Below are positions 1,789 through 59,288 of a stretch of DNA of 64,000 nucleotides, piece after piece; the first letter of the stretch is position 1; each line of letters begins with the position of its first letter. Where the stretch lies: NCBI GenBank assembly GCA_964550035.1, contig CAZJVU010000004.1:7820-71819 (forward strand). Reading direction: 5' to 3'. The DNA comes from an uncultured Candidatus Saccharibacteria bacterium (GTDB lineage Bacteria > Patescibacteriota > Saccharimonadia > Saccharimonadales > EFPC-124). The notes beneath the pieces were generated by a model, which was not told where the DNA came from, made no database searches, and saw nothing but the letters and a program-made list of their open reading frames with translations. The translations under genes and the position numbers were made by a program.

Positions 1789-1814
1789 AAAAACTCCCGT
1801 CCGCGGGAGTTTTT
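1789..1814 (+). terminator. Intrinsic terminator after nrdJ
   Basis: AAAAACTCCCG-tccg-CGGGAGTTTTT hairpin with flanking A and T tracts. A near twin lies at 59241-59268. Confidence 0.7.
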
Positions 1815-1819
1815 AGATG

Positions 1820-1917
1820 AAATGGGGTGGCGTCCGGCGGGGCGGCCCCACTTTTGCCCGCAGCTATAGCGAGGACAAAAGAAGGGGCGGACCGGACGAC
1901 AGGACCCCAGTCCTTCA
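1820..1917 (+). repeat. Copy A of a ~95-nt rod-like structured repeat (possible ncRNA)
   Basis: Shares AATGGGGTGGC...AGGGGCGG..GACAGGACCCC with copies at 23245 and 56718. Helices P1-P3 checked by hand: 1824-28/1904-08, 1831-37/1892-98, 1846-56/1876-87. Confidence 0.6.
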
Positions 1918-12450: not shown

Positions 12451-12558
12451 GCGGAAGATTAGCTCGTTGTAGGCCAGAAACATCCCCTTTCCGGGGCGAA
12501 CGGAGCGAGCTGTTTGCGAGCGAAGAGTTTTCTGGACACAACGAGCTAATCTTAGCGC
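12451..12558. repeat. Long rod-like hairpin X1 between convergent parB and lepB
   Basis: 16-bp outer stem AAGATTAGCTCGTTGT/ACAACGAGCTAATCTT. Inner stem CCAGAAA/TTTCTGG. The core GCGAGCTGTTTGCGAGCGAA is shared with 19450-19558. Confidence 0.6.
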
Positions 12559-18630: not shown

Positions 18631-19478
18631 TACTTCTTGGCACTACGCTGGCGCACAACCTCGTAGGCGATAGCGACCGTTGCAGCGCTGACGTTGAGTG
18701 AGTCGGCAATACCAGCCATCGGGAGGCGAACAGGCAGGTCGCAATCCTCGATCCACTGGTCGGTTAGGCCGAATTGTTCGCTGCCCATGACGATTGCAAC
18801 TGGTTCGGTGAGGTCGACGTCGGTATAAAGTTCTTGTGCGGCGGGCGTGGCGGCGAGAGAGCGGATGTGATGCTTGCGTAGAAACTCCAAGGCGGATTTG
18901 CTGTCGGTGATGATGGTTGGTGTCGTGAAGAGCACGCCGGTAGAAGCGCGAACAACGTTTGGGTTGAACGGATCGGTTACGGCGTCGCAGACGATGACTG
19001 CTTCGGCGCCAGTCGCATCAGCGGAGCGGAGGATGGTGCCAAGATTGCCTGGCTTTTCGATCGCTTCGACAACGATGAGGAACGGGTTATCGGATAGTTT
19101 CAGCTCTTGGAGCGAGGTATGCCATTGTTTGCCAACGCCAAGCAGGCCTTCGGGTCTTTCACGGTAGGCGATTTTAGCGAATGCTTCCTTGCCAAGCCGA
19201 GTGAGCGTGGCGCCGGCTTTTGCGGCATCGTCCAAGACTTTTTGCTCGTTGGTCCCGAGGAACCACTCGGGGCTGTAGTAGATCTCGTCGAAATGAAACC
19301 CTGCGGCCAAAGCTCGGGTAACCGGGCGATATCCTTCAGTGGTGAATACACCTTGTTCGTCGCGTTCACTGCGCTTGCGGAGCTTCGCGAGGGCTTTGAC
19401 ACGCGGGTTGTGGATGCTGGTGATGGCCTCACTGTCTGCGGAGGTGGGGGCGAAACTACCCATTCTTGCCTCGAACAA
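18630..19478 (-). CDS. TrmH/SpoU-family RNA 2'-O-methyltransferase; start may be ATG 19463
   Basis: SpoU-type C-terminal motifs (NLGTILRSA, GSEQFGL, IPMAGIADSLNVS). Confidence 0.75.
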   Translation of the reverse strand: MFEARMGSFAPTSADSEAITSIHNPRVKALAKLRKRSERDEQGVFTTEGYRPVTRALAAGFHFDEIYYSPEWFLGTNEQKVLDDAAKAGATLTRLGKEAFAKIAYRERPEGLLGVGKQWHTSLQELKLSDNPFLIVVEAIEKPGNLGTILRSADATGAEAVIVCDAVTDPFNPNVVRASTGVLFTTPTIITDSKSALEFLRKHHIRSLAATPAAQELYTDVDLTEPVAIVMGSEQFGLTDQWIEDCDLPVRLPMAGIADSLNVSAATVAIAYEVVRQRSAKK

Positions 19479-19558
19479 CCTCGACGTTCCCCGGAGGAAG
19501 GAAGCGAGCTGCTTGCGAGCGGACTGTAGTTGTGAGAGGTAAGAATGGGTAGTTTCGC
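19450..19558 (-). repeat. Long rod-like hairpin X2 between prfA and the TrmH-like gene
   Basis: 23-nt arms GCGAAACTACCCATTCTTgCCTC/GAGGtAAGAATGGGTAGTTTCGC. The left arm contains the ATG at 19463. The core GCGAGCTGCTTGCGAGCGGA is shared with X1. Confidence 0.6.
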
Positions 19559-22522: not shown

Positions 22523-23239
22523 ATGGCAGTTGCTGTAGATATCAAGGCTTTGCTGGCCAGCGGTGCTCACTTTGGGCACAAGACCAGTCGTTGGCACCCA
22601 AAGATGGCGCCGTACATTCACAGTAAGCGTGCTGGCATGCACATTATCGACCTGACCAAGACCGTCGAAGGCCTGGACAGGGCGCTTGCGTTCATCGAAA
22701 AGGAAGTTGCTTCTGGCAAGCAAGTGCTTTTCGTTGGCACGAAGCGACAAGCTAAAGACATTCTCAAGGCTGCTGCCGAAGACGTCAAAATGCCATTTGT
22801 CACTGAACGTTGGATGGGCGGTATGCTGACCAACATCAAGACCATCGGCGAACGCGTCAAGCGCCTTAAGGACCTCGAGACCCGCATGGCCGCTGGTGAA
22901 CTCGCGAGCCGCTACAACAAGCTCGAAGTGCAGCGTTTCCAAGAAGAAATCGACAGCTTGAACTTCAAGTACGGGGGAATCAAGGACATGAACGGCCAGC
23001 CAGGCGCTATGTTCGTTGTTGACGTCGTGGCCGAAGAAAACGCCGTCAAAGAAGCTCGTCGCCTCGGTATCCCTGTGGTTGCAATCGTTGATACCAACGC
23101 CAACCCAGATGTTGCAGACTACATCGTTCCTGCAAACGACGACGCTATCAAGAGCGTTCAGTTGATCACCGACTACGTAAAGCAAGCTATTACTGAAGGT
23201 GTTGCTGCGCGCAAGGCGGCTACTCCAGCAGAAAAATAG
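22523..23239 (+). CDS. rpsB: 30S ribosomal protein S2
   Basis: LLASGAHFGHKTSRWHPKM is a canonical S2 N-terminus. Confidence 0.95.
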   Translation: MAVAVDIKALLASGAHFGHKTSRWHPKMAPYIHSKRAGMHIIDLTKTVEGLDRALAFIEKEVASGKQVLFVGTKRQAKDILKAAAEDVKMPFVTERWMGGMLTNIKTIGERVKRLKDLETRMAAGELASRYNKLEVQRFQEEIDSLNFKYGGIKDMNGQPGAMFVVDVVAEENAVKEARRLGIPVVAIVDTNANPDVADYIVPANDDAIKSVQLITDYVKQAITEGVAARKAATPAEK

Positions 23240-23244
23240 ATAGA

Positions 23245-23350
23245 AAATGGGGTGGCAGCCGGCGGGACAGCTCCCAGGTTTTTGCCCGCAGGATTTTTAA
23301 TCCGAGGACAAAAACTAGGGGCGGGCCGACTGACAGGACCCCTTCCACTA
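23245..23350 (+). repeat. Copy B of the ~95-nt rod-like structured repeat, in the rpsB-tsf spacer
   Basis: P1 23249-53/23338-42, P2 23256-62/23326-32 (one mismatch), P3 23279-84/23309-14, apical GGATT/AATCC. Confidence 0.6.
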
Positions 23351-23373: not shown

Positions 23374-23973
23374 ATGGGAGCAATTTCACTCGAAGAAGTA
23401 AAGAAGCTCAAAGAGCTCACCGGCGTGGGCCTCACCGACGCTAAGAACGCACTAACCGAAGCCGACGGCGACTTTGACAAAGCGCTCGAAGCCATGCGCA
23501 AGAAGGGCCTGACCCGTGCCGAGAAAAAAGGTGAGCGCGAAGCTCGCGAAGGCCTCGTAGACAGCTACGTCCACGGTGGTCGCATCGGTGTTGTCGTCGA
23601 AGTAAACTGCGAGACTGACTTCGTAGCTCGTACCGACGACTTCAAGAATCTCGTTCACGACGTTGCCATGCACATCGCTGCCGCCAACCCTCAGTTCGCC
23701 AGCATCGAGGAAATTCCTGCCGATGTCCGCGAGGCCAAGAAAGCGGAGTTCGTCGAGAAGGTAAAGAACGAAGGCAAGCCAGAAAACATCGCTGAGCAAA
23801 TTGTCGAAGGCATGCTGAAGAAGCACTTTGCCGAAAAGACGCTCACCGAGCAGTCATTCATCAAGAATCCTGACCAGACAGTCGGCGACTACGTCAAAGA
23901 GCATATCGCTCGCTTGGGCGAGAACATCGTTGTTCGTCAGTTCAAGCGCATTGAGCTTGGTGTAAGCGAATAA
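23374..23973 (+). CDS. tsf: Elongation factor Ts (short form, 199 aa)
   Basis: VKKLKELTGVGLTDAKNAL UBA-like N-terminus and EVNCETDFVA. Confidence 0.9.
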   Translation: MGAISLEEVKKLKELTGVGLTDAKNALTEADGDFDKALEAMRKKGLTRAEKKGEREAREGLVDSYVHGGRIGVVVEVNCETDFVARTDDFKNLVHDVAMHIAAANPQFASIEEIPADVREAKKAEFVEKVKNEGKPENIAEQIVEGMLKKHFAEKTLTEQSFIKNPDQTVGDYVKEHIARLGENIVVRQFKRIELGVSE

Positions 23974-37197: not shown

Positions 37198-37236
37198 GGG
37201 GTCGCATGGCCAGAGAGCGTCTGGCCATGCGACCCC
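37198..37236 (+). terminator. GC hairpin after 36918..37190
   Basis: GGGGTCGCATGGCCAGA/TCTGGCCATGCGACCCC 17-bp perfect stem. Confidence 0.55.
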
Positions 37237-39123: not shown

Positions 39124-39170
39124 TGAGCGAAGCCCCGAGCGGGCCGGAAGATTCCGGCCACACTCGGGGC
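39124..39170 (-). repeat. Cassette-boundary hairpin R1
   Basis: TGAGCGAAGCCCCGAGCGGGCCGGAAGATTCCGGCCACACTCGGGGC, 20 nt downstream of the gene 1 stop. Confidence 0.85.
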
Positions 39171-39190
39171 TTTTTGGCGCGTCTCTGACG

Positions 39191-39424
39191 CTACTGGTTG
39201 CGTGATTTCCGCTTCCTCCTCAGGAGGATGGGAATGACCACAACGGCGGCGCCACTGATGTAGGCAAGTGCCAGCAACGCGCTGTAGCCCTCCTGCAAAT
39301 GCAACAATGCGACGGACCCGAGTGCTGTACCGGCCGTCAAGGCGGCGTAGGCGACTGCCTTCCGGCGAGCACCGACGGTGAGGCCGGTGATGCAGCCCCC
39401 GAGGATCAGCAGTATCCACCACAT
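39191..39424 (-). CDS. Array gene 1: small 3-TM protein with a polybasic tail (77 aa)
   Basis: GAAGGAG SD. TM1 GGCITGLTVGARRK. Tail LLRRKRKSRNQ. Confidence 0.7.
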   Translation of the reverse strand: MWWILLILGGCITGLTVGARRKAVAYAALTAGTALGSVALLHLQEGYSALLALAYISGAAVVVIPILLRRKRKSRNQ

Positions 39425-39463
39425 GGGTGTGACTCCTTCGATGGTGAGCCTGACGTGCCTGGT

Positions 39464-39757
39464 TCAGCGCTTGCCCTTCTTCGGCCGCTTGGGCCGGATC
39501 CGGCGGTTGGGTCGGTCGGCGCCGAAGATGTGGCCGATGAAACCGCCGCACGCCAGAGCCGCAGGGAAGCTGAGCCACTGCAGCGTCGTGAGCTCGAACG
39601 GTTTGCACCACACCAGGATGATGGCCACGGCGCCGACGAACGCCACCGCGCCCAGCAGCTCGTGCGTGTTCTTCTCGTGCCACCGTCCCTTGAAGAAACA
39701 GTAGCCTGCCAGCACCATGAATGCGCCAGCGAGACCAAATGCGACCTGTGCGGTCAT
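39464..39757 (-). CDS. Array gene 2: small 3-TM protein with a polybasic tail (97 aa)
   Basis: AGAGGGG SD. Tail RPNRRIRPKRPKKGKR. Confidence 0.7.
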   Translation of the reverse strand: MTAQVAFGLAGAFMVLAGYCFFKGRWHEKNTHELLGAVAFVGAVAIILVWCKPFELTTLQWLSFPAALACGGFIGHIFGADRPNRRIRPKRPKKGKR

Positions 39758-39797
39758 TGGTACCCCTCTGAGGAATGGATGGACAGAACGTTTAATG

Positions 39798-39825
39798 ATT
39801 ATAGTATAATTGTAGATATTGTCAA
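39798..39825 (-). promoter_or_regulatory. Cassette A promoter
   Basis: Minus strand TTGACA-N16-TATAAT. Confidence 0.6.
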
Positions 39826-39855
39826 TTTAGTAGGGCAGAGTCATACCCTAAAAAT

Positions 39856-39903
39856 TGAGCGAAGCCCCGAGCGGGCCGGAAAATATCCGGCCACACTCGG
39901 GGC
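39856..39903 (-). repeat. Cassette-boundary hairpin R2
   Basis: TGAGCGAAGCCCCGAGCGGGCCGGAAAATATCCGGCCACACTCGGGGC. Confidence 0.85.
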
Positions 39904-39938
39904 TTGTTGTACGTACCGACCGTGTGCGCGGGTCGGCT

Positions 39939-40202
39939 TCAGGACCCTTCGGCGTGCTTGCGCTTTTTCCGCCGCAGCTTCACCGAAGTAGTGACGAAGG
40001 TTGCGAGCACGAGGGTGGCTGACCAGGCGGCGACCGTGCCCACGTTCTCACCCTTGAGGGGGTCGACCCCTCGCGCCAGCAGGAGCGCCCAGGTGCCCAG
40101 CATGAGGCACGTGCCTGCGACCAACCGCGACACATCTCGGTTGATGGCGCCAACGACGACGCCGGTCACGAGGGCGAGGCCGACTGCTATCACAAAGGTC
40201 AT
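39939..40202 (-). CDS. Array gene 3: small 3-TM protein with a polybasic tail (87 aa)
   Basis: AAGGAG SD. VDPLKGE turn. Tail KLRRKKRKHAEGS. Confidence 0.7.
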   Translation of the reverse strand: MTFVIAVGLALVTGVVVGAINRDVSRLVAGTCLMLGTWALLLARGVDPLKGENVGTVAAWSATLVLATFVTTSVKLRRKKRKHAEGS

Positions 40203-40231
40203 CTACTTTACTCCTTGTTGGTGCAGGATGT

Positions 40232-40504
40232 TCAGGGGTGACGCTTGGACTTGCGCAGTTGCTTGAGCCGCCTCGCACCTACAGCGCTCATGACCGCTGA
40301 GGAGACTGTGACGCTGACCACCAAGGCGATCAGAAAGTTTGCCGTTTCCGGCTCGTTTGCGGGGTCGTGTCCCACAATCACGAGCGCCAACCACGCAGCG
40401 GCCAAGATGACCGCCCCGGCGAGGAGCTTCTGCCAGGCACGTAGGGAGGCAGCGGCGAGTATGCCGCACAGAAACCCTGTGATGACAAATACGACTACAG
40501 CCAT
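40232..40504 (-). CDS. Array gene 4: small 3-TM protein with a polybasic tail (90 aa from ATG 40504)
   Basis: AGAAGG SD before the internal ATG. GHDPANE turn. Tail RRLKQLRKSKRHP. Confidence 0.65.
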   Translation of the reverse strand: MAVVVFVITGFLCGILAAASLRAWQKLLAGAVILAAAWLALVIVGHDPANEPETANFLIALVVSVTVSSAVMSAVGARRLKQLRKSKRHP

Positions 40505-40613
40505 GACGTAACCTTCTTGTTCGGCTCGGGTTTGTGCTTCGATGATCGCGCTGCACATGGAGGGCAGCTGTCAGTACCGCACATCCTTATGCAGGGGTAG
40601 AGCGTACTATATT

Positions 40614-40642
40614 CTTATAGTATAAGTTCAGTATTATGTCAA
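40614..40642 (-). promoter_or_regulatory. Cassette B promoter
   Basis: Minus strand TTGACA-N17-TATAAG. Confidence 0.6.
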
Positions 40643-40670
40643 TGTAACTAGCGTACAGCTTGGCATAAAA

Positions 40671-40717
40671 TGAGCGAAGCCCCGAGCGGGCCGAAGATAT
40701 CCGGCCACACTCGGGGC
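40671..40717 (-). repeat. Cassette-boundary hairpin R3
   Basis: TGAGCGAAGCCCCGAGCGGGCCGAAGATATCCGGCCACACTCGGGGC. Confidence 0.85.
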
Positions 40718-40738
40718 TTTTGTTGCTGATCGATGCTT

Positions 40739-41029
40739 CTAGCGGCTCCAGCGCTTGGGCTTGGGACGAACGTCCTTCAGCCTCTTGCGCTTGGCCAGCT
40801 TGAGCTTCACGATGCCGGCGACGATCGCCGCGAGCCCAAGGCTGAACAGCCAGGCGAGCACCACGGTCTTGTCGGGGTTGGGGAAGGGGTTGAGCCCCGT
40901 CAGCATCAGGATGATCTGAGAGATCAGCATGATGAACCCTACGGCCATCAGTCGGGGCACCACCTTTCGGACGCCGACGGCGGCGATGCCGGTCAGAATC
41001 CCCGACGCGATCACCAGAAGTACCAGCAT
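40739..41029 (-). CDS. Array gene 5: small 3-TM protein with a polybasic tail (96 aa)
   Basis: AGGAGG SD. TM1 ASGILTGIAAVGVRK. Tail KLKLAKRKRLKDVRPKPKRWSR. Confidence 0.7.
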   Translation of the reverse strand: MLVLLVIASGILTGIAAVGVRKVVPRLMAVGFIMLISQIILMLTGLNPFPNPDKTVVLAWLFSLGLAAIVAGIVKLKLAKRKRLKDVRPKPKRWSR

Positions 41030-41053
41030 GATTCCTCCTACGACGGTGGTGCG

Positions 41054-41320
41054 TCAGCGACGCGGCGTCTGGGCTGCCGTCTCGCGCTTCCGCTTCACGA
41101 TCACCGCGATGAAGGCGGCGATGATGCTGCTGCCCGTGAAGGTGGCCGCCATCGCGGCGTTCTGCATCGGCTCGAACACCAGCGCCTTCGCGGCGAGGCC
41201 CGCGCCCAGGAGCATGAACATGGCACCGCAGATCCGGAAGAACTGAAGCTTGGAGCCGAGGGCCCAGAAGCCGCAGAGCGCTCCGGTGCCGATCAGCAGG
41301 GGCCAGAGGTAAAGGGGCAT
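41054..41320 (-). CDS. Array gene 6: small 3-TM protein with a basic tail (88 aa)
   Basis: AAGGAG SD. VFEPMQN turn. Tail VKRKRETAAQTPRR. Confidence 0.7.
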   Translation of the reverse strand: MPLYLWPLLIGTGALCGFWALGSKLQFFRICGAMFMLLGAGLAAKALVFEPMQNAAMAATFTGSSIIAAFIAVIVKRKRETAAQTPRR

Positions 41321-41359
41321 CGGTATGTCTCCTTAGTATGGTGGATACAGCGTATTGTA

Positions 41360-41388
41360 TTTATAGGATAAGTTCAATATTTTGTCAA
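41360..41388 (-). promoter_or_regulatory. Cassette C promoter
   Basis: Minus strand TTGACA-N17-TATAAA. Confidence 0.6.
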
Positions 41389-41406
41389 TTCTACTGTGTC
41401 TAGAAA

Positions 41407-41454
41407 TGAGCGAAGCCCCGAGCGGGCCGAAGAATATCCGGCCGCACTCGGGGC
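41407..41454 (-). repeat. Cassette-boundary hairpin R4
   Basis: TGAGCGAAGCCCCGAGCGGGCCGAAGAATATCCGGCCGCACTCGGGGC. Confidence 0.85.
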
Positions 41455-41482
41455 TTGGAACGCGCTGGTCGACGGGCGCAGC

Positions 41483-41755
41483 CTACTTGCCATGTGTGTC
41501 GTCGTACCACTCACGAGTGAAGTATCCAGCGAGTGCGCCCACCGCCGCACTGCCGGCGAAGACGACGATGAAGAGCAACCAAGAGGATTGCGCCTGCGCC
41601 TGCAGCTGCTCGAACTTTGGGTCGAACGGGTACAGGGCGGCCCCCGCGGCCACCATGATGCTGACGGCCACCGCCATGGCGAGACCGAAGCGTCTGATGA
41701 AGCCGATGGCCACACCACCGAGCGCGCCGGCAACAACCAAGAACGTGGTGATCAT
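41483..41755 (-). CDS. Array gene 7: small 3-TM protein (90 aa); the only member without a polybasic tail
   Basis: AGAGAGG SD. TM1 VAGALGGVAIGFIRR. PFDPKFE turn. Ends in YFTREWYDDTHGK. Confidence 0.7.
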   Translation of the reverse strand: MITTFLVVAGALGGVAIGFIRRFGLAMAVAVSIMVAAGAALYPFDPKFEQLQAQAQSSWLLFIVVFAGSAAVGALAGYFTREWYDDTHGK

Positions 41756-41783
41756 GAGTACACCTCTCTGCTGTAGGGAGCGG

Positions 41784-42044
41784 TTATCGTTTACTCTTCT
41801 TTTGACCGCCCTTCAGGACGCCGATGACGGTAAGCGTGATGAACGCCACGCTGCCATAGATCACCCCCACGGCGATGAGCTTCGACCACTTGGTGGGGTC
41901 GAAGCCGACGCAGAGCAGGGTGACGAAGCCGCCCGCCGTGATGACGGCTGCCACCATGACAGCGACATCTTCGCGCCGAATGACACCAAATGCGAGTCCG
42001 CACAAGATGCCGGCGACCAAGGTCACCAGAAAGCTCGGGAACAT
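41784..42044 (-). CDS. Array gene 8: small 3-TM protein with a basic tail (86 aa from ATG 42044)
   Basis: AAGGA SD. TM1 VAGILCGLAFGVIRR. GFDPTKW turn. Tail KGGQKKSKR. Confidence 0.65.
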   Translation of the reverse strand: MFPSFLVTLVAGILCGLAFGVIRREDVAVMVAAVITAGGFVTLLCVGFDPTKWSKLIAVGVIYGSVAFITLTVIGVLKGGQKKSKR

Positions 42045-42130
42045 GGCTCGAGTATCCTTGTCTGTGAAGTCGGCGCGCGCTAAGACTGAAGCGCGATTCT
42101 GTTCTCGCACTGAGGCGAGAAGCTTATACA

Positions 42131-42159
42131 TTTATAGTATTAAATAATTGCTTTGTCAA
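42131..42159 (-). promoter_or_regulatory. Cassette D promoter
   Basis: Minus strand TTGACA-N17-TATAAA. Confidence 0.6.
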
Positions 42160-42179
42160 TGTTTTCTTGGTGTCTAAAA

Positions 42180-42224
42180 TGAGCGAAGCCCCGAGCGGGC
42201 CGGGTTTCCGGCCACACTCGGGGC
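42180..42224 (-). repeat. Cassette-boundary hairpin R5
   Basis: TGAGCGAAGCCCCGAGCGGGCCGGGTTTCCGGCCACACTCGGGGC. Confidence 0.85.
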
Positions 42225-42267
42225 TTGTTGCGCCGCACGACGGACGCGCTGTGGGTTGGTCGACTTC

Positions 42268-42552
42268 TCAGCGTGAGCGCTTCTTGGGCTTGAACTTCCG
42301 CTTCACGATGGCCGCGGTGACGAGCCAGGGGATCCCGGCTGCGATACCCAGTACTAGCGTGGCCACCCCGTCCCGGCCGTACAGGATTCCCATTCCGGCA
42401 GTGGCCACGGCGGTGAGAAACATGAGCCAGCCGAACATCTTGAAGAGCAGCGTGACCCGCGGGTGGGTGGCCAAAACGCCATACGCAGCACTGCCGAAGA
42501 CCGCGAGCAGCCAGAACCACCAGGGCACATTCGCAAACGTGAGCGTGATCAT
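42268..42552 (-). CDS. Array gene 9: small 3-TM protein with a polybasic tail (94 aa; alternative start ATG 42570)
   Basis: Tail VKRKFKPKKRSR. Only gene in cassette E. Confidence 0.65.
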   Translation of the reverse strand: MITLTFANVPWWFWLLAVFGSAAYGVLATHPRVTLLFKMFGWLMFLTAVATAGMGILYGRDGVATLVLGIAAGIPWLVTAAIVKRKFKPKKRSR

Positions 42553-42584
42553 CTCCCTTGTGCAGTACACGATAGTACTGCAAA

Positions 42585-42613
42585 ACTATAGGATGGAATC
42601 ACGTGTCTGTCAA
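42585..42613 (-). promoter_or_regulatory. Cassette E promoter
   Basis: Minus strand TTGACA-N17-TATAGT. Confidence 0.6.
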
Positions 42614-42645
42614 TAGTTCAACTCGTAGCGTGCTCTCTATAAAGC

Positions 42646-42683
42646 GGCGTCTGAGCGGGCCAGTGTGGCCGCGCCCAGACGCC
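42646..42683 (-). repeat. Cassette-boundary hairpin R6 (diverged copy with a compensated stem)
   Basis: GGCGTCTG-AGCGGGCC-agtgt-GGCCGCGC-CCAGACGCC. It retains GAGCGGGCC and the fold, but the outer stem has a different sequence. Confidence 0.7.
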
Positions 42684-42697
42684 GTACGGACGGTCGG

Positions 42698-42946
42698 TTA
42701 CTTCTTGTTCTTCTTGGTGATGTAGGCCCTCACGAAGCCCACGATCATCGCCGAAACGACGGTACTGATCAGGAGGGCCAGCCAGGCCGAATCATCCTTG
42801 TGCGCATCGTACCCGAGGCTGTACAGGGCGATGCCCGTGGCCACCGCAATGACAAAAGCGATGAGAATCGCAAGCGACACTTGCCGGAGGCCACCGATCA
42901 GGGCGCCGCATGCAGTACCGGCGACGATTGTTATGAAGTAGAACAT
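42698..42946 (-). CDS. Array gene 10: small 3-TM protein with a basic tail (82 aa from ATG 42946)
   Basis: GGGAG SD 5 nt upstream. TM1 VAGTACGALIGGLRQ. GYDAHKDD turn. Tail ITKKNKK. Confidence 0.65.
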   Translation of the reverse strand: MFYFITIVAGTACGALIGGLRQVSLAILIAFVIAVATGIALYSLGYDAHKDDSAWLALLISTVVSAMIVGFVRAYITKKNKK

Positions 42947-42980
42947 AAAAACTCCCAACACGGACGCTGAGGTCAATAGC

Positions 42981-43013
42981 TTTATATAAGTATAGATTTG
43001 TCTGTGTCGTCAA
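42981..43013 (-). promoter_or_regulatory. Cassette F promoter (weaker match)
   Basis: Minus strand TTGACG followed 18-19 nt later by TTATAT/TATATA. Confidence 0.4.
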
Positions 43014-43028
43014 GCGATATCCAGCGAA

Positions 43029-43076
43029 TGAGCGAAGCCCCGAGCGGGCCGAAGGGTATCCGGCCGCACTCGGGGC
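43029..43076 (-). repeat. Cassette-boundary hairpin R7
   Basis: TGAGCGAAGCCCCGAGCGGGCCGAAGGGTATCCGGCCGCACTCGGGGC. Confidence 0.85.
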
Positions 43077-43104
43077 TTGGGTCGGCGTGTCTGGTTGGAC
43101 TCAC

Positions 43105-43377
43105 CTAGTGCCGTTTTTTGGATCGACGACCGGGCTGGCTGCCACCCAGGCACCCGCATACACTGCCGCATGCGAACAGGGTGAAGACGGCGGCCCATTG
43201 CGCCAGACTGTACTCCAGTGCTTGCCCCCATACGCACATGACGATGGCGGCCGATACCAGCGCCAGCACTCCAGCCCGTGTGATGGCGATCTTCGTGCGG
43301 GAGAATCCTCTGAAGATGCAGAAGCCAGCTCCGGCGATGAGCAGGCTCGTGATGACGCCCGCAAGTTGTACGGACAC
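43105..43377 (-). CDS. Array gene 11: small 3-TM protein with a basic tail (90 aa, GTG start)
   Basis: AAGGAGG SD 3 nt before GTG 43377. Tail GRRSKKRH. The longer track ORF runs through gene 12 in another frame. Confidence 0.6.
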   Translation of the reverse strand: MSVQLAGVITSLLIAGAGFCIFRGFSRTKIAITRAGVLALVSAAIVMCVWGQALEYSLAQWAAVFTLFACGSVCGCLGGSQPGRRSKKRH

Positions 43378-43415
43378 GGCCCTCCTTGAGGCTCGGATGA
43401 AGCGTACGGCGCAGG

Positions 43416-43673
43416 CTACTTCTTGGCCTTGCGCTTCTTCTTGCTGTCCTTCGCGATGGTGACGATCGTCGTGACGACAGAGGTGCTGGCCAGGAAGGCC
43501 AGCCAGGGCAGAATGTCCTCGCGCGCGTCGTATTCGAGGCCAAACAGCACAAAGGACGTGATCAGCACGATGGCACCGTCGATGGCGAACGCGACGCGCA
43601 GTCGCTGGACGCCACCGAGCACGACGCCACACAGCACTCCTGAGAGGACGGTGACCAAGTAGTACACGAACAT
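43416..43673 (-). CDS. Array gene 12: small 3-TM protein with a polybasic tail (85 aa)
   Basis: AAAGGAG SD. TM1 LSGVLCGVVLGGVQR. EYDAREDILPW turn. Tail KDSKKKRKAKK. Confidence 0.7.
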   Translation of the reverse strand: MFVYYLVTVLSGVLCGVVLGGVQRLRVAFAIDGAIVLITSFVLFGLEYDAREDILPWLAFLASTSVVTTIVTIAKDSKKKRKAKK

Positions 43674-43710
43674 GACTGACTCCTTTAACGTGGATGTTCA
43701 GTTCATTGTC

Positions 43711-43739
43711 TTTATAGTATTTATTTATGAGTTTGTCAA
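43711..43739 (-). promoter_or_regulatory. Cassette G promoter
   Basis: Minus strand TTGACA-N17-TATAAA. Confidence 0.6.
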
Positions 43740-43753
43740 ATTATAAGCTCGTA

Positions 43754-43800
43754 TGAGCGAAGCCCCGAGCGGGCCGGAAAGTTCCGGCCACACTCGGGGC
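43754..43800 (-). repeat. Cassette-boundary hairpin R8
   Basis: TGAGCGAAGCCCCGAGCGGGCCGGAAAGTTCCGGCCACACTCGGGGC. Confidence 0.85.
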
Positions 43801-43832
43801 TGTATGGCGTTGGAGCTGCGACCCTGTAGGGT

Positions 43833-44087
43833 TTAGCGCCGGCGTTTGTCTTGCTTTTTGCGCATGACGGCGAGCACGACGATCGTGATCACCACGCTGC
43901 CCACTGCGCTGCCCAACCAGGCGAGCAGTACGTTGACATTCGAGGGTTCGAAGCCGGCGCCCACCAGAATGAACGCGGTGACGACGGTGATGCCGACTGC
44001 GATCGGCAGGTAAATGATCGCCCGCTGGAGCGCACCCAGCACAATGCCCGTCAGGATGCCTGCGACGATCACAATCAGAAAGAGCAT
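43833..44087 (-). CDS. Array gene 13: small 3-TM protein with a polybasic tail (84 aa from ATG 44087)
   Basis: GGAGGG SD. TM1 VAGILTGIVLGALQR. GFEPSNVN turn. Tail MRKKQDKRRR. Confidence 0.65.
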   Translation of the reverse strand: MLFLIVIVAGILTGIVLGALQRAIIYLPIAVGITVVTAFILVGAGFEPSNVNVLLAWLGSAVGSVVITIVVLAVMRKKQDKRRR

Positions 44088-44126
44088 GACTGTTTTCCCT
44101 CCAAGAGCGGTAACGAGTACGATATA

Positions 44127-44155
44127 GTTATAGTATATAGAGATGGCATCGTCAA
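44127..44155 (-). promoter_or_regulatory. Cassette H promoter
   Basis: Minus strand TTGACG-N17-TATAAC. Confidence 0.55.
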
Positions 44156-55586: not shown

Positions 55587-56714
55587 ATGACGGTGATTAC
55601 TATGCGCACGAAAACAAAAACAACCATCCTTGCAAGTCTTCGAAAGGCTGCCACGGGCACGTTCCTGGCGGTGTTGATGGCGATTGCGCCAGCTCTGAGC
55701 GCGAGCGCCGATAACTTCGACGACCAGATCAACGCCCTTCAGCAGCAGATCAGCGGCTATCAGCAGCAAGCCGGTCAGCTCCGTGCACAGGCTGATAACT
55801 TGCAAGCGCAAATTGGCGCCATCGACGCCCAGAAGCAAGCGATAGAAGCGCAGATTTCCGCCAACGAAATCAAGAAAGAGCAGCTCAACGAGAAAATCCA
55901 AGAAACCTCAAACAAGCTCGCCCAGCAAAAGCAAGGTCTCGGCGACAACCTCCGCTCGATGTATGTCGAAAACGACATCACCCCGCTCGAGATGATCGCT
56001 TCGAGCAAAAGTATTAGCGATTTTATCGACAAACAGGAGTACCGCAACAAGATTCGTGATGCTATACAGGAGAGTTTGAAGCAGATCAAAGACCTCCAGG
56101 CTCAGTTGACCAAACAGCGCCAGGACGTCGAGAACGTGCTCGCAAACCAAAAAGCACTGCAGTCAAGCCTCGCCGACCAAGAGAGCCAGAAGAACCAGTT
56201 GCTTGCCGAAACCCAAGGTCAAGAAGCCGCATATCAGCAGCTCACAGCCGACAAGAACAGTAAGATCTCCGATCTCCGTGCTCAACAGCGCGCTGCTAAT
56301 GCTCGGTTTATCGGCGCGGCGGGCTCGGGCCCTGCTTGTGGCGGTGGCTACCCGGGCGTCTACTGTAATGCGCCGATGGACACCGTCGTCGACAACTGGC
56401 TGATGTATAACCGTGAATGCGTAAGCTATGCCGCCTGGAAGACGAACCAAGTGCACGGATACAACCCAACTGGTTGGGGTAACGCTAACCAATGGCCGGG
56501 CGCTGCGCGCTCATCTGGCCTCTCTGTGGATGGCAATCCTCGCTCTGGCGACATCGCCGTCTGGAATGTCGGCTACTATGGCCACGTGATGTACGTTGAA
56601 TCGGTAAATGGTAACGGTACGATCAACGTGAGCCAGTACAACGCTGACTGGAATGGTACGTTTAGCTACGCTAACAATATTAGCGCTAGCGGTTTGCAGT
56701 TTATTCACTTCTAA
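55587..56714 (+). CDS. PcsB/EnvC-like secreted coiled-coil protein with a C-terminal CHAP peptidoglycan hydrolase domain
   Basis: Signal peptide. About 200 aa of Q-rich heptad coiled coil. CHAP Cys (NRECVSYAAWK) and His (GHVMYVESV). Confidence 0.75.
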   Translation: MTVITMRTKTKTTILASLRKAATGTFLAVLMAIAPALSASADNFDDQINALQQQISGYQQQAGQLRAQADNLQAQIGAIDAQKQAIEAQISANEIKKEQLNEKIQETSNKLAQQKQGLGDNLRSMYVENDITPLEMIASSKSISDFIDKQEYRNKIRDAIQESLKQIKDLQAQLTKQRQDVENVLANQKALQSSLADQESQKNQLLAETQGQEAAYQQLTADKNSKISDLRAQQRAANARFIGAAGSGPACGGGYPGVYCNAPMDTVVDNWLMYNRECVSYAAWKTNQVHGYNPTGWGNANQWPGAARSSGLSVDGNPRSGDIAVWNVGYYGHVMYVESVNGNGTINVSQYNADWNGTFSYANNISASGLQFIHF

Positions 56715-56717
56715 ATT

Positions 56718-56810
56718 AAATGGGGTGGCAGCTCGCGGGGTGGCCCCAAAAAGTTTTCTGTACTCAGAAAACCTTTTTAGGGGCGGACGAGCTGACAGGA
56801 CCCCTTCCTA
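56718..56810 (+). repeat. Copy C of the ~95-nt rod-like structured repeat
   Basis: P1 56722-26/56800-04, P2 56729-35/56788-94 (perfect), P3 56744-53/56773-83, P4 56754-60/56765-71. Confidence 0.6.
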
Positions 56811-56891
56811 TTTTTTCTCTCGTTTGGCTAAAAGCCGTCACTCGAGTGCCACTGGCAATGTTCGGGACCCCAGTCCTATTTGGTATGATGG

Positions 56892-57401
56892 GTGAGTATG
56901 GAAAAACTGACGTCGCACGCCAAAAAGTCCCACACCACACGCCGCGCGCTTGGCTTTGGTTTCGTAGCGCTTGTCGTGGTTACACTTGTGGCGTCGGCGA
57001 TCGCCATAGCGGCGAGAGGCCCAGCTTGCGGCGGGGGATATCCCGAGAAATGGTGCAATCGCCCGCTCGATTCGGTCGTAGATACCTGGGGTATGTACAA
57101 CCGTGAATGTGTGAGCTATACAGCGTACCGCGTGGCTCATTCGGGCCGTCATATGCCATATGGATTTGGTGATGCCAATAAGTGGCCAGCGGCCGCCAAG
57201 GCTAAGGGCATAGCCGTTGACTACTCGCCGCGGGCAGGGGACGTCGCCATCGATATGGCGGGCGACCATGGCCACTCAATGTACGTCGAATGGATCAACG
57301 ACAACGGAACGCTCCACATCAGCGAGTACAACAAGAACAAAACCGGCACCTACGCCGAAGAAGACGTTGACCGTATGGGCCTCCTATTTATACACTTCTA
57401 A
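56892..57401 (+). CDS. Membrane-anchored CHAP-domain peptidoglycan hydrolase (169 aa), paralog of the C-terminus of 55587..56714
   Basis: CGGGYPEKWCNRPLDSVVDTWGMYNRECVSY.. aligns with CGGGYPGVYCNAPMDTVVDNWLMYNRECVSY.. Confidence 0.75.
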   Translation: MSMEKLTSHAKKSHTTRRALGFGFVALVVVTLVASAIAIAARGPACGGGYPEKWCNRPLDSVVDTWGMYNRECVSYTAYRVAHSGRHMPYGFGDANKWPAAAKAKGIAVDYSPRAGDVAIDMAGDHGHSMYVEWINDNGTLHISEYNKNKTGTYAEEDVDRMGLLFIHF

Positions 57402-59154: not shown

Positions 59155-59240
59155 CTCCAGCCTCCCCTTCGGGCAGCGCTCCCTGCAAGCCGTTGCCTTT
59201 CTTTCTTGGCCACGCATTGAAGCTGGCGATCTATGAATCT

Positions 59241-59268
59241 AAAAACTCCCGCGAAATCGGGAGTTTTT
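59241..59268. terminator. Bidirectional intrinsic terminator between the receiver gene and rpmA
   Basis: AAAAACTCCCG-cgaaat-CGGGAGTTTTT. Near twin of 1789-1814. Confidence 0.75.
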
Positions 59269-59288
59269 AGCTAGTAGGGCGAGAGGCC

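Follow-up and report, generated by a model that had tools for sequence, protein, structure and literature searches.

A repeated, folded element in a Saccharibacteria genome

What is the element of roughly 95 nt that occurs three times in a 64,000-nt stretch of DNA from an uncultured Candidatus Saccharibacteria bacterium (hereafter, the window, meaning the whole stretch at its full length), and does its well-conserved fold mean that it works as an RNA? A first-pass annotation, made from the letters of the window, had described three plus-strand copies with a common rod-like fold, and we find them at the same places, with cores at 1822-1908 (copy A), 23247-23342 (copy B), and 56720-56804 (copy C). 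Our analysis suggests that these copies probably represent a new dispersed family of small, non-autonomous, mobile or formerly mobile intergenic palindromic repeats, of the kind exemplified by repetitive extragenic palindromes (REPs), REPINs, miniature inverted-repeat transposable elements (MITEs), and Rickettsia palindromic elements.

The three copies share exact matches to ATGGGGTGGC (at 1822, 23247, and 56720) and to GACAGGACCCC (at 1898, 23332, and 56794). Since only about 0.1 exact 10-mers are expected by chance in 128 kb (both strands of the window), three properly spaced pairs of a 10-mer and an 11-mer cannot be put down to chance. The terminal motifs on their own, when up to two mismatches are allowed, are no more frequent in the window than in shuffled sequence. 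When the window is searched with a covariance model built from 35 copies, copies A, B, and C are the only credible hits, scoring 82-88 bits. Homologues place the organism in the Saccharibacteria (Saccharimonadales).

All three copies lie between genes. The full unit of copy A (1814-1916, plus strand, 83.0 bits) consists of an A/T-rich leader, the core, and the trailer AGTCC, and comes after the 3' end of the gene for a class II ribonucleotide reductase and the terminator hairpin of that gene. The observation that no plus-strand gene lies downstream of copy A was correct, and it fits a repeat that merely occupies intergenic space. Copy B (23239-23350, plus strand, 82.5 bits) separates rpsB (22523-23239) from tsf (23374-23973). 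Copy C (56712-56812, plus strand, 87.8 bits) is bordered by a PcsB-like CHAP gene (55587-56714) and a second CHAP gene (56892-57401), so that its spacer is flanked by two genes for CHAP-domain peptidoglycan hydrolases, with ftsEX upstream. The sequence GTTCGGGACCCCAGTCCTATTTGG, 56 nt downstream of copy C (56860-56885, plus strand), may be what is left of the 3' end of another copy that has collapsed; this tentative assignment goes by its sequence, which resembles the collapsed copies L127 113-153 and L101 2536-2570, and the covariance model does not detect it.

The first-pass annotation had recognized no known RNA family in the element, and indeed the whole window gives no match at gathering thresholds to Rfam 15, whose families include twister, hammerhead, hairpin, and HDV-like ribozymes, SRP and 6S RNAs, and riboswitches. 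Permissive E-value scans around copies A, B, and C and one distant copy returned only weak, unrelated matches that differed from copy to copy, and a scan of the window for tRNA and transfer-messenger RNA found no gene. No description of the element emerged from the literature, searched both by topic and by sequence string; a string match to a primer for the Caulobacter dciA coding sequence was dismissed as coincidence.

The stems of the rod covary

Minimum-free-energy folding of copies A, B, and C reproduced the proposed rod, which consists of P1 (GGGGU/ACCCC), a 7-bp P2, P3, and an apical hairpin. The plus-strand z-scores are -3.5, -2.1, and -3.7, respectively, and the minus strands fold at least equally well (z -4.2 to -5.7). 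Specifically, in the fold of copy A (-46.1 kcal/mol), the 5' strand of P1, GGGGT, occupies 1824-1828 and pairs with ACCCC at 1904-1908. The segment 1829-1837 holds a GG junction followed by the 5' strand of P2, CGTCCGG (1831-1837), whose partner CCGGACG lies at 1892-1898. P3 and the apex extend over 1846-1887, where CCCC-A-CTTTTG faces CAAAAG-AA-GGGG, and they enclose the apical module CCCGCAG (1857-1863) ... CGAGGAC (1870-1876). The 3' side (1898-1913) reads as the junction GACAGG with an AGG bulge, the 3' strand of P1, and the conserved trailer AGTCC, all on the plus strand.

The P2 strands are as they had been reported, namely CGTCCGG/CCGGACG in copy A, CAGCCGG/CCGACTG with one C.A in copy B, and CAGCTCG/CGAGCTG in copy C. 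For P3, the proposed form of CCCC plus 6 bp facing 6 bp plus GGGG holds in general, except that the 5' side of copy B is UCCC rather than CCCC. The conserved unit is also larger than had been noted. It takes in about 8 nt more on the upstream side, as a leader that is rich in A/T and ends in AAT, and 4-5 nt more on the downstream side, as a trailer after ACCCC with the consensus N-K-Y-C (63 copies). Of 63 copies, 57-61 have a leader with AAT at its end, although most of these were retrieved with a pattern demanding AT. The core measures about 100 nt; outer arms, where present, bring the unit to about 170 nt.

The compensatory changes seen among the three copies are genuine, as covariation is upheld in an alignment of 82 distinct sequences (84 model hits at E <= 1e-6). 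In this alignment, the modelled pairs form in 94.8% of cells, compared with 79.3% in shuffles, and 184 cells carry double changes, compared with 54; the observed values were reached by none of 500 shuffles. When the 3' partners are shifted by 1-3 columns, pairing collapses. P1 is nearly invariant, its five pairs being constant in 78-82 of the 82 sequences, with a C-G first pair in one copy. P2 is free in sequence yet paired, with 12-40 double changes per column. Between the two stems lies a conserved, asymmetric junction in which GGC stands opposite GAC, with a G.A pair and the AGG bulge; in five copies, the G.A pair is swapped to A.G (GAC/GGC), giving TGAC...GGCAGG instead of TGGC...GACAGG. 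A second internal loop follows beyond P2, and then a variable apex. In many copies, from all phyla, the apex contains the module GCNCGCAG-loop-CGAGNAC, which is absent from about half of the copies; copy C is one of these, its apex being a plain A/T hairpin without CGCAG..CGAG.

This combination of strong covariation with invariant unpaired nucleotides speaks for an alternative explanation, according to which the plus strand is transcribed into a structured non-coding RNA of a new class, which could be a small RNA cut out of a long processing stem or a ribozyme that cleaves itself. Function would then reside in a core made of the conserved junctions, with P2, P3, and the outer arms providing no more than structure. 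The G.A to A.G swap in five copies, the conservation of the junction sequences across phyla, and a core that stays conserved while the arms drift yet still pair, like a closing or processing stem, all agree with this explanation, and, given the lack of an Rfam match, such an RNA would be new. We nevertheless regard it as unlikely, on account of the missing apical module in about half of the copies and of the distribution, turnover, and orientation of the family, which are described below.

The family is dispersed across genomes and phyla

Scanning one genome per species with exact patterns yielded 34 loci, mostly in Saccharibacteria, with up to six hits per genome. Outside this group, hits came from two Aminicenantes (one a 3.18-Mb chromosome), two gammaproteobacterial genomes, and one Nitrospirales genome. 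Two or three of the 34 loci look like chance (L007, L019, and perhaps L015). A scan of metagenomes, including soil, added 48 loci with 53 model hits, at GC contents from 36% to 78%. Because the search patterns demanded the terminal 10-mer and 11-mer, the invariance of the termini in these sets is partly built in. The covariance model adds further, more divergent copies within the same 8-kb loci, so that several copies may be present per 8 kb.

Altogether, more than 80 homologues beyond the window were found, in independent assemblies from NCBI, ENA, JGI, and Logan. Together with the exact pairs that occur three times at the proper spacing, they refute the idea that the element is a chance resemblance or an assembly artefact, to which we assign practically no weight. 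Viral contigs gave 51 pattern hits, none of which forms a rod or passes the model, and all of which are chance; blastn against plasmids, with one Saccharibacteria copy and one gammaproteobacterial copy as queries, gave no match.

Two arrangements of copies stand out among these loci. In a high-GC soil lineage, the element is found in each successive spacer of a syntenic thiD-tag-DUF5647 cluster (L107 3299-4901; L126 2407-3424; L120 430-1274), always antisense to the genes and with an array-like spacing of ~750 nt. Head-to-head inverted pairs of copies occur at L003 105-306 and L034 7685-8000, with the members ~20 nt and ~200 nt apart.

Copies are gained and lost between close relatives

The rpsB-tsf spacer, which measures 134 nt in the window, where it holds copy B, is only 2-3 nt long in four relatives (L086, L088, L089, and L144) whose EF-Ts or ParB is 88-93% identical to that of the window, and a further relative (L087) has an internally deleted copy at the same site. 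In the filled alleles, the C-terminus and stop codon of rpsB are different, and the Shine-Dalgarno sequence that follows the element is new. Conversely, a relative at 93% identity (L090) has a copy after a response-regulator gene, where the window has none, and a different hairpin element in the spacer of copy C. The closest relatives sampled (L142, at 96%, L143, and L144) have no copy in 45 kb. Collapsed, internally deleted remnants persist in L087, L101, and L127.

The spacer of copy C is variable in another respect. Between the PcsB-like and CHAP genes, three relatives (L091-L093) have a gene resembling 6-phosphogluconate dehydrogenase (~309 aa), while the window (56715-56891) and L090 have hairpin repeats instead.

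Copies sit between unrelated genes in either orientation

All copies are intergenic, and their neighbors are unrelated housekeeping genes (msrA, ddl, gyrA, argS, priA, lolA, thiD, tag, dnaA, and jag). A conserved partner gene was sought and rejected, since an all-against-all BLAST of neighboring open reading frames (ORFs) gave synteny groups only and Pfam showed housekeeping functions. With respect to the flanking genes, 6 copies are tandem-sense, 15 tandem-antisense, 12 between convergent genes, and 10 between divergent genes. With respect to local GC skew, the two orientations are equally frequent (27 vs 27), and a replication-strand bias was rejected on this count. The element is even flipped at one orthologous site, a glycosyltransferase/jag spacer in which it lies on the plus strand in L133 and on the minus strand in L138.

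In addition, no association with a promoter, a terminator, or a gene emerged among the copies. On inspection, the leaders showed no conserved -35/-10 elements, and those in high-GC lineages are not -10-like. On the 3' side, no U-tract consistently follows the stem; the N-K-Y-C trailer gives way to variable sequence. A short conserved ORF starting from an ATG was rejected, because the frames differ in length between copies (~15 aa, 17 aa, and >100 aa) and because GTG, AAG, or ACG takes the place of the ATG in some.

These results bear directly on the RNA explanation. A dedicated small RNA would not be expected to lack a conserved promoter, terminator, and U-tract, to be oriented randomly or even with an antisense bias relative to its neighbors, to be flipped at orthologous sites, to come and go between very close relatives, or to persist in internally deleted form. 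Therefore, the proposal in the first-pass annotation that the element is a dedicated ~95-nt functional RNA or a switch is not supported: copies occur in both orientations and without promoter, terminator, or gene association, are gained or lost at 88-93% protein identity, and include deleted remnants. What the annotation had named as refuting such an RNA, namely MITE-like behavior, is largely what the element shows: it is multi-copy, occurs in both orientations, and is polymorphic for insertion, except that no target-site duplication could be demonstrated.

The same data were used to weigh a further explanation, in which the element serves the host at the level of DNA or mRNA ends, as a bidirectional terminator, a 3'-end stabilizer, or a protein or cruciform site (as BIME/REP are for gyrase and IHF), and has spread only secondarily. 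Many copies do lie between convergent genes or directly after stop codons, with arms that often begin at or include the stops of both genes; copy A is flanked by two terminator hairpins; the stems are kept complementary in place; and either orientation would be equally workable for a DNA site or a symmetric hairpin. However, ten copies occupy divergent, promoter-side spacers, copy B lies within the essential rpsB-tsf operon, where termination would be harmful, and the orthologous spacers of close relatives do without the element. The inconsistent U-tract, and the asymmetry between G.U and A.C pairs (see below), which argues against a purely double-stranded DNA role, count against it as well. 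We therefore consider this explanation less likely still than the RNA one. An intrinsic terminator in particular was rejected, as there is no consistent U-tract, 15 of the copies in tandem spacers run antisense, and divergent spacers hold another 10.

The relation of the element to gene ends deserves a separate description. The A/T-rich leader or arm usually carries TAA or TAG in more than one frame (e.g., 23237-23246 and 56712-56719 in the window; L014, L028, and L121), and the stop codon of the upstream gene, often together with that of a convergent gene, falls inside the element. By bringing a stop codon with it, the element may make insertions into the 3' ends of genes tolerable, and we infer that elements remodel gene ends in this very compact genome.

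Outer arms and a sister family of hairpins

Inverted repeats of 12-31 bp flank the core in 22 of 63 copies, starting 8-10 nt outside it on each side and often reaching or including the stop codons of the flanking genes. In some genomes, several copies have arms in common (L014, L027, and L028; two copies in L030), and the Aminicenantes-type copies share the arms TTTCCGTGAT...ATCACGGAAA; elsewhere, the arms are unique. A comparison of L131 with L137 shows two adjacent arm substitutions that are mirrored on both arms. The possibility that the arms act as guides or antisense to other sequences of the window was rejected, as they match nothing beyond themselves.

A sister hairpin family in the window is the most informative about such arms. 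Its members, at 12455-12553 and 19450-19558, have the form CCCC-loop-GGGG, followed by GGA(R)GCGAGCTGYTTGCGAGCG(R)A, and are enclosed by perfect, locus-specific arms of 16 and 30 bp. Between the window and L142 (ParB 96% identical), each of the two hairpins differs by four perfectly compensated pairs, and the core between the arms is nearly unchanged. The corresponding empty sites in L086, L143, and L144 contain no hairpin at all, and the spoU gene of L143 has no arm-like sequence; consequently, the arms belong to the inserted unit, and for the sister family the suggestion that they are pre-existing hairpins or inverted native flank is countered. In L087 and L089, the sister-family core is flipped between homologous arms or sites. 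We interpret the arms as free in sequence but kept complementary, through either selection for folding or arm-to-arm correction. There is also a resemblance between the GCGAGC boxes of the sister family and the apical module, GCNCGCAG..CGAGNAC, that the main family carries.

The sister family also reaches into a gene start. A SpoU-family methyltransferase gene begins within the minus-strand arm at 19450-19479, which contains its Shine-Dalgarno sequence (GAGG), its ATG (19463-19461), and its first ~4 codons, so that, if transcribed, the start would be buried in a 30-bp duplex. The SpoU-type methyltransferase of the window has an N-terminal extension of ~10 residues relative to that of L143, where the gene overlaps prfA (TAATG) and no hairpin is present. 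Two Logan contigs of the window's own strain (L145 and L146, identical ParB) end ~88 nt after parB, inside the 12455-12553 hairpin, from which it appears that palindromic repeats break short-read assemblies.

The plus strand may be the folding strand

A preference for one strand would be informative, since, if real, it would mean that the element is selected in single-stranded form, as single-stranded DNA or RNA. In a count of wobble pairs that used a copy filter treating both strands alike, the first six pairs of P2 contain 19 G.U and 4 A.C, and the plus strand is lower in energy in 43 of 59 copies; these two asymmetries also count in favor of the RNA explanation. In the model alignment, P2 and P3 together show 34 G.U-type and 22 A.C-type pairs. 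The data are thus suggestive of the plus strand as the folding strand, whether as single-stranded DNA or as RNA, and the preference is not established, because many of the cases are inherited within genome-specific subfamilies.

A mobile palindromic repeat as the most probable explanation

How could such a repeat spread and keep its fold? The conserved termini and junction may be what a trans-acting enzyme recognizes when it works on the folded plus strand, and its substrate would most simply be single-stranded DNA, as in REP/RAYT (REP-associated tyrosine transposase) or IS200/IS605 systems. Complementarity would be kept because only foldable copies propagate, possibly aided by arm-to-arm correction within the palindrome. 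As the same core is present in Aminicenantes, Gammaproteobacteria, and Nitrospirales, either a partner enzyme spreads by horizontal transfer or the element depends on a host function that is universal. Being located within an operon, copy B must be co-transcribed; in the mRNA it would be a merely passive, stable hairpin, a side effect such as REPs have. This mobilizing mechanism is inferred rather than shown, since no transposase, no terminal inverted repeats, and no consistent target-site duplication were found.

Several observations weigh against a mobile repeat. No transposase or RAYT gene was found near any copy, and phmmer searches of six-frame translations of 750 kb of loci, with IS200 TnpA and Escherichia coli RAYT sequences as queries, gave no hit. 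Nor was an autonomous parent found, with no credible split pair of left and right ends 0.2-5 kb apart in the same 750 kb. The terminal inverted repeat of the core is only 5 bp, and the copies inspected have no consistent target-site duplication, though a few candidates were seen, among them TCAG and T-runs at the two copies of L030. Other features point to more constraint than a selfish repeat in decay would show. Conservation of the termini extends across phyla, and the 13 copies found by the model only still keep GGGTG(G/A)C and G(A/G)CAGGACCC. Orthologous cores change 4-5 times more slowly than arms (L131 vs L137, and the sister family at 19450-19558), which suggests constraint in place or gene conversion among copies. 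As for the strand preference, it is absent from the unfiltered 35-copy set (14 G.U-type vs 12 A.C-type, with equal energies for both strands), the G.U counts are phylogenetically non-independent, and the folding of one specific strand would also be explained by an RNA. One candidate for a split-end parent, with a 900-nt gap, was rejected because it encloses rpsR and efp.

A bolder proposal takes the core as the working part of something undescribed. The terminal stem (GGGGU/ACCCC), the G.A junction and AGG bulge, the tail N-K-Y-C, and the apical module GCNCGCAG..CGAGNAC would then constitute either a cross-phylum structured RNA (a small RNA that a long closing stem releases, or a new self-cleaving ribozyme) or the folded single-strand substrate of some hairpin-specific recombinase or transposase. 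We think this improbable. If the RNA version were true, the element would be a widespread new RNA class; if the recombinase or transposase version were true, its outer arms would be self-correcting, and it would remodel gene ends with stop codons, ribosome-binding sites, and start codons.

The mobile-repeat explanation has consequences beyond this locus. For RNA-discovery pipelines, it means that a functional RNA cannot be concluded from strong covariation and a clean rod fold alone, as the same signal arises from palindromic mobile repeats. For Saccharibacteria, whose ~1-Mb genomes are thought to be poor in mobile DNA, it means that a repeat under active turnover fills spacers and appears to break short-read assemblies, and that a sister family can remodel gene starts.

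Other repeats in the window

Two further groups of repeats were seen in the window. A tandem array at 39124-44155 consists of seven units of ~750 bp, each with a 56-nt nested-hairpin repeat, TGAGCGAAGCCCCGAGCGGGCCGG...CCGGCCACACTCGGGGCTTTT; most units also carry a promoter-like minus-strand repeat, TTGACAAA...ATACTATAAA, along with small ORFs without a Pfam match. Long intergenic hairpins with perfect stems of 13-20 bp occur at 1787-1816, 59239-59270, 1918-1963, 2297-2338, and 37198-37236, and two of them share an identical stem, CTAAAAACTCCCG/CGGGAGTTTTTAG. These long, perfect hairpins seem to be the normal style of terminator in this genome.

Comparison with known systems

REPINs are extragenic repeats of ~70-110 nt with highly conserved left and right ends and a less conserved spacer; the whole unit folds as a long hairpin in single-stranded DNA or RNA, compensatory changes are common, and copies are found in either orientation and in large numbers per genome (PMC3116915). 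The element is similar in having conserved ends, a variable hairpin-forming spacer, and compensatory changes. In contrast to REPINs, it does not carry the same REP in inverted form at its two ends: symmetry is confined to GGGGT/ACCCC and the stems, and the loops are asymmetric. When the left end, GGGGTGGC-P2-CGGGGYRG, is set against the reverse complement of the right end, GGGGTCCTGTC-P2-TCCG, all loops differ. The element also has no conserved GTAG/CTAC motif, and, whereas REPIN families are lineage-specific, its core is common to several phyla. REPINs are mobilized by RAYT (TnpA-REP), a Y1 HUH enzyme whose gene in the same genome usually has the repeats on both sides; in the loci searched here, no such gene was found.

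With MITEs such as Correia/NEMIS, ERIC, RUP, and BOX, the element shares a small size, the lack of coding capacity, multiple intergenic copies, imperfect palindromic structure, and insertion polymorphism, and, as with them, co-transcription and effects on mRNA are possible. The definition of a MITE calls for terminal inverted repeats conserved throughout the family, target-site duplications, and a related insertion sequence that encodes the transposase. The element differs in that it is most conserved internally, its outer arms differ between loci and genomes, and neither a consistent duplication nor a parent insertion sequence was found.

Rickettsia palindromic elements are palindromic repeats of ~100-150 nt in reduced genomes, patchily distributed among relatives, without a recognizable transposase, inverted repeats, or duplications, and able to alter gene ends; they often insert in frame within genes. 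The present copies, in contrast, are intergenic and at most remodel gene termini, and there is no sequence similarity.

The attC sites of integrons also are single-stranded hairpins with conserved terminal boxes, unpaired or extrahelical features, and a variable terminal structure, of which one strand folds. An attC identity was rejected, because the R''/R' boxes (RYYYAAC / GTTRRRY) are absent, the termini being AATGGGGT... and ...ACCCCNKYC, and because there are no cassette arrays and no integrase, and the neighbors are housekeeping genes.

The ends of IS200/IS605 elements and their ORF-less derivatives (palindrome-associated transposable elements, PATEs) resemble the element in their strand-specific hairpins, the lack of terminal inverted repeats and of a consistent target duplication, and a short conserved sequence immediately 5' of the element, which here would be the leader AAT. 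They differ from it in having two separate subterminal hairpins and a replication-strand bias, whereas here there is one rod, the orientations are balanced at 27:27, and no Y1 transposase was found. Altogether, the most economical reading places the element, whose membership of the REPIN family is not established, closest in logic to the REPINs.

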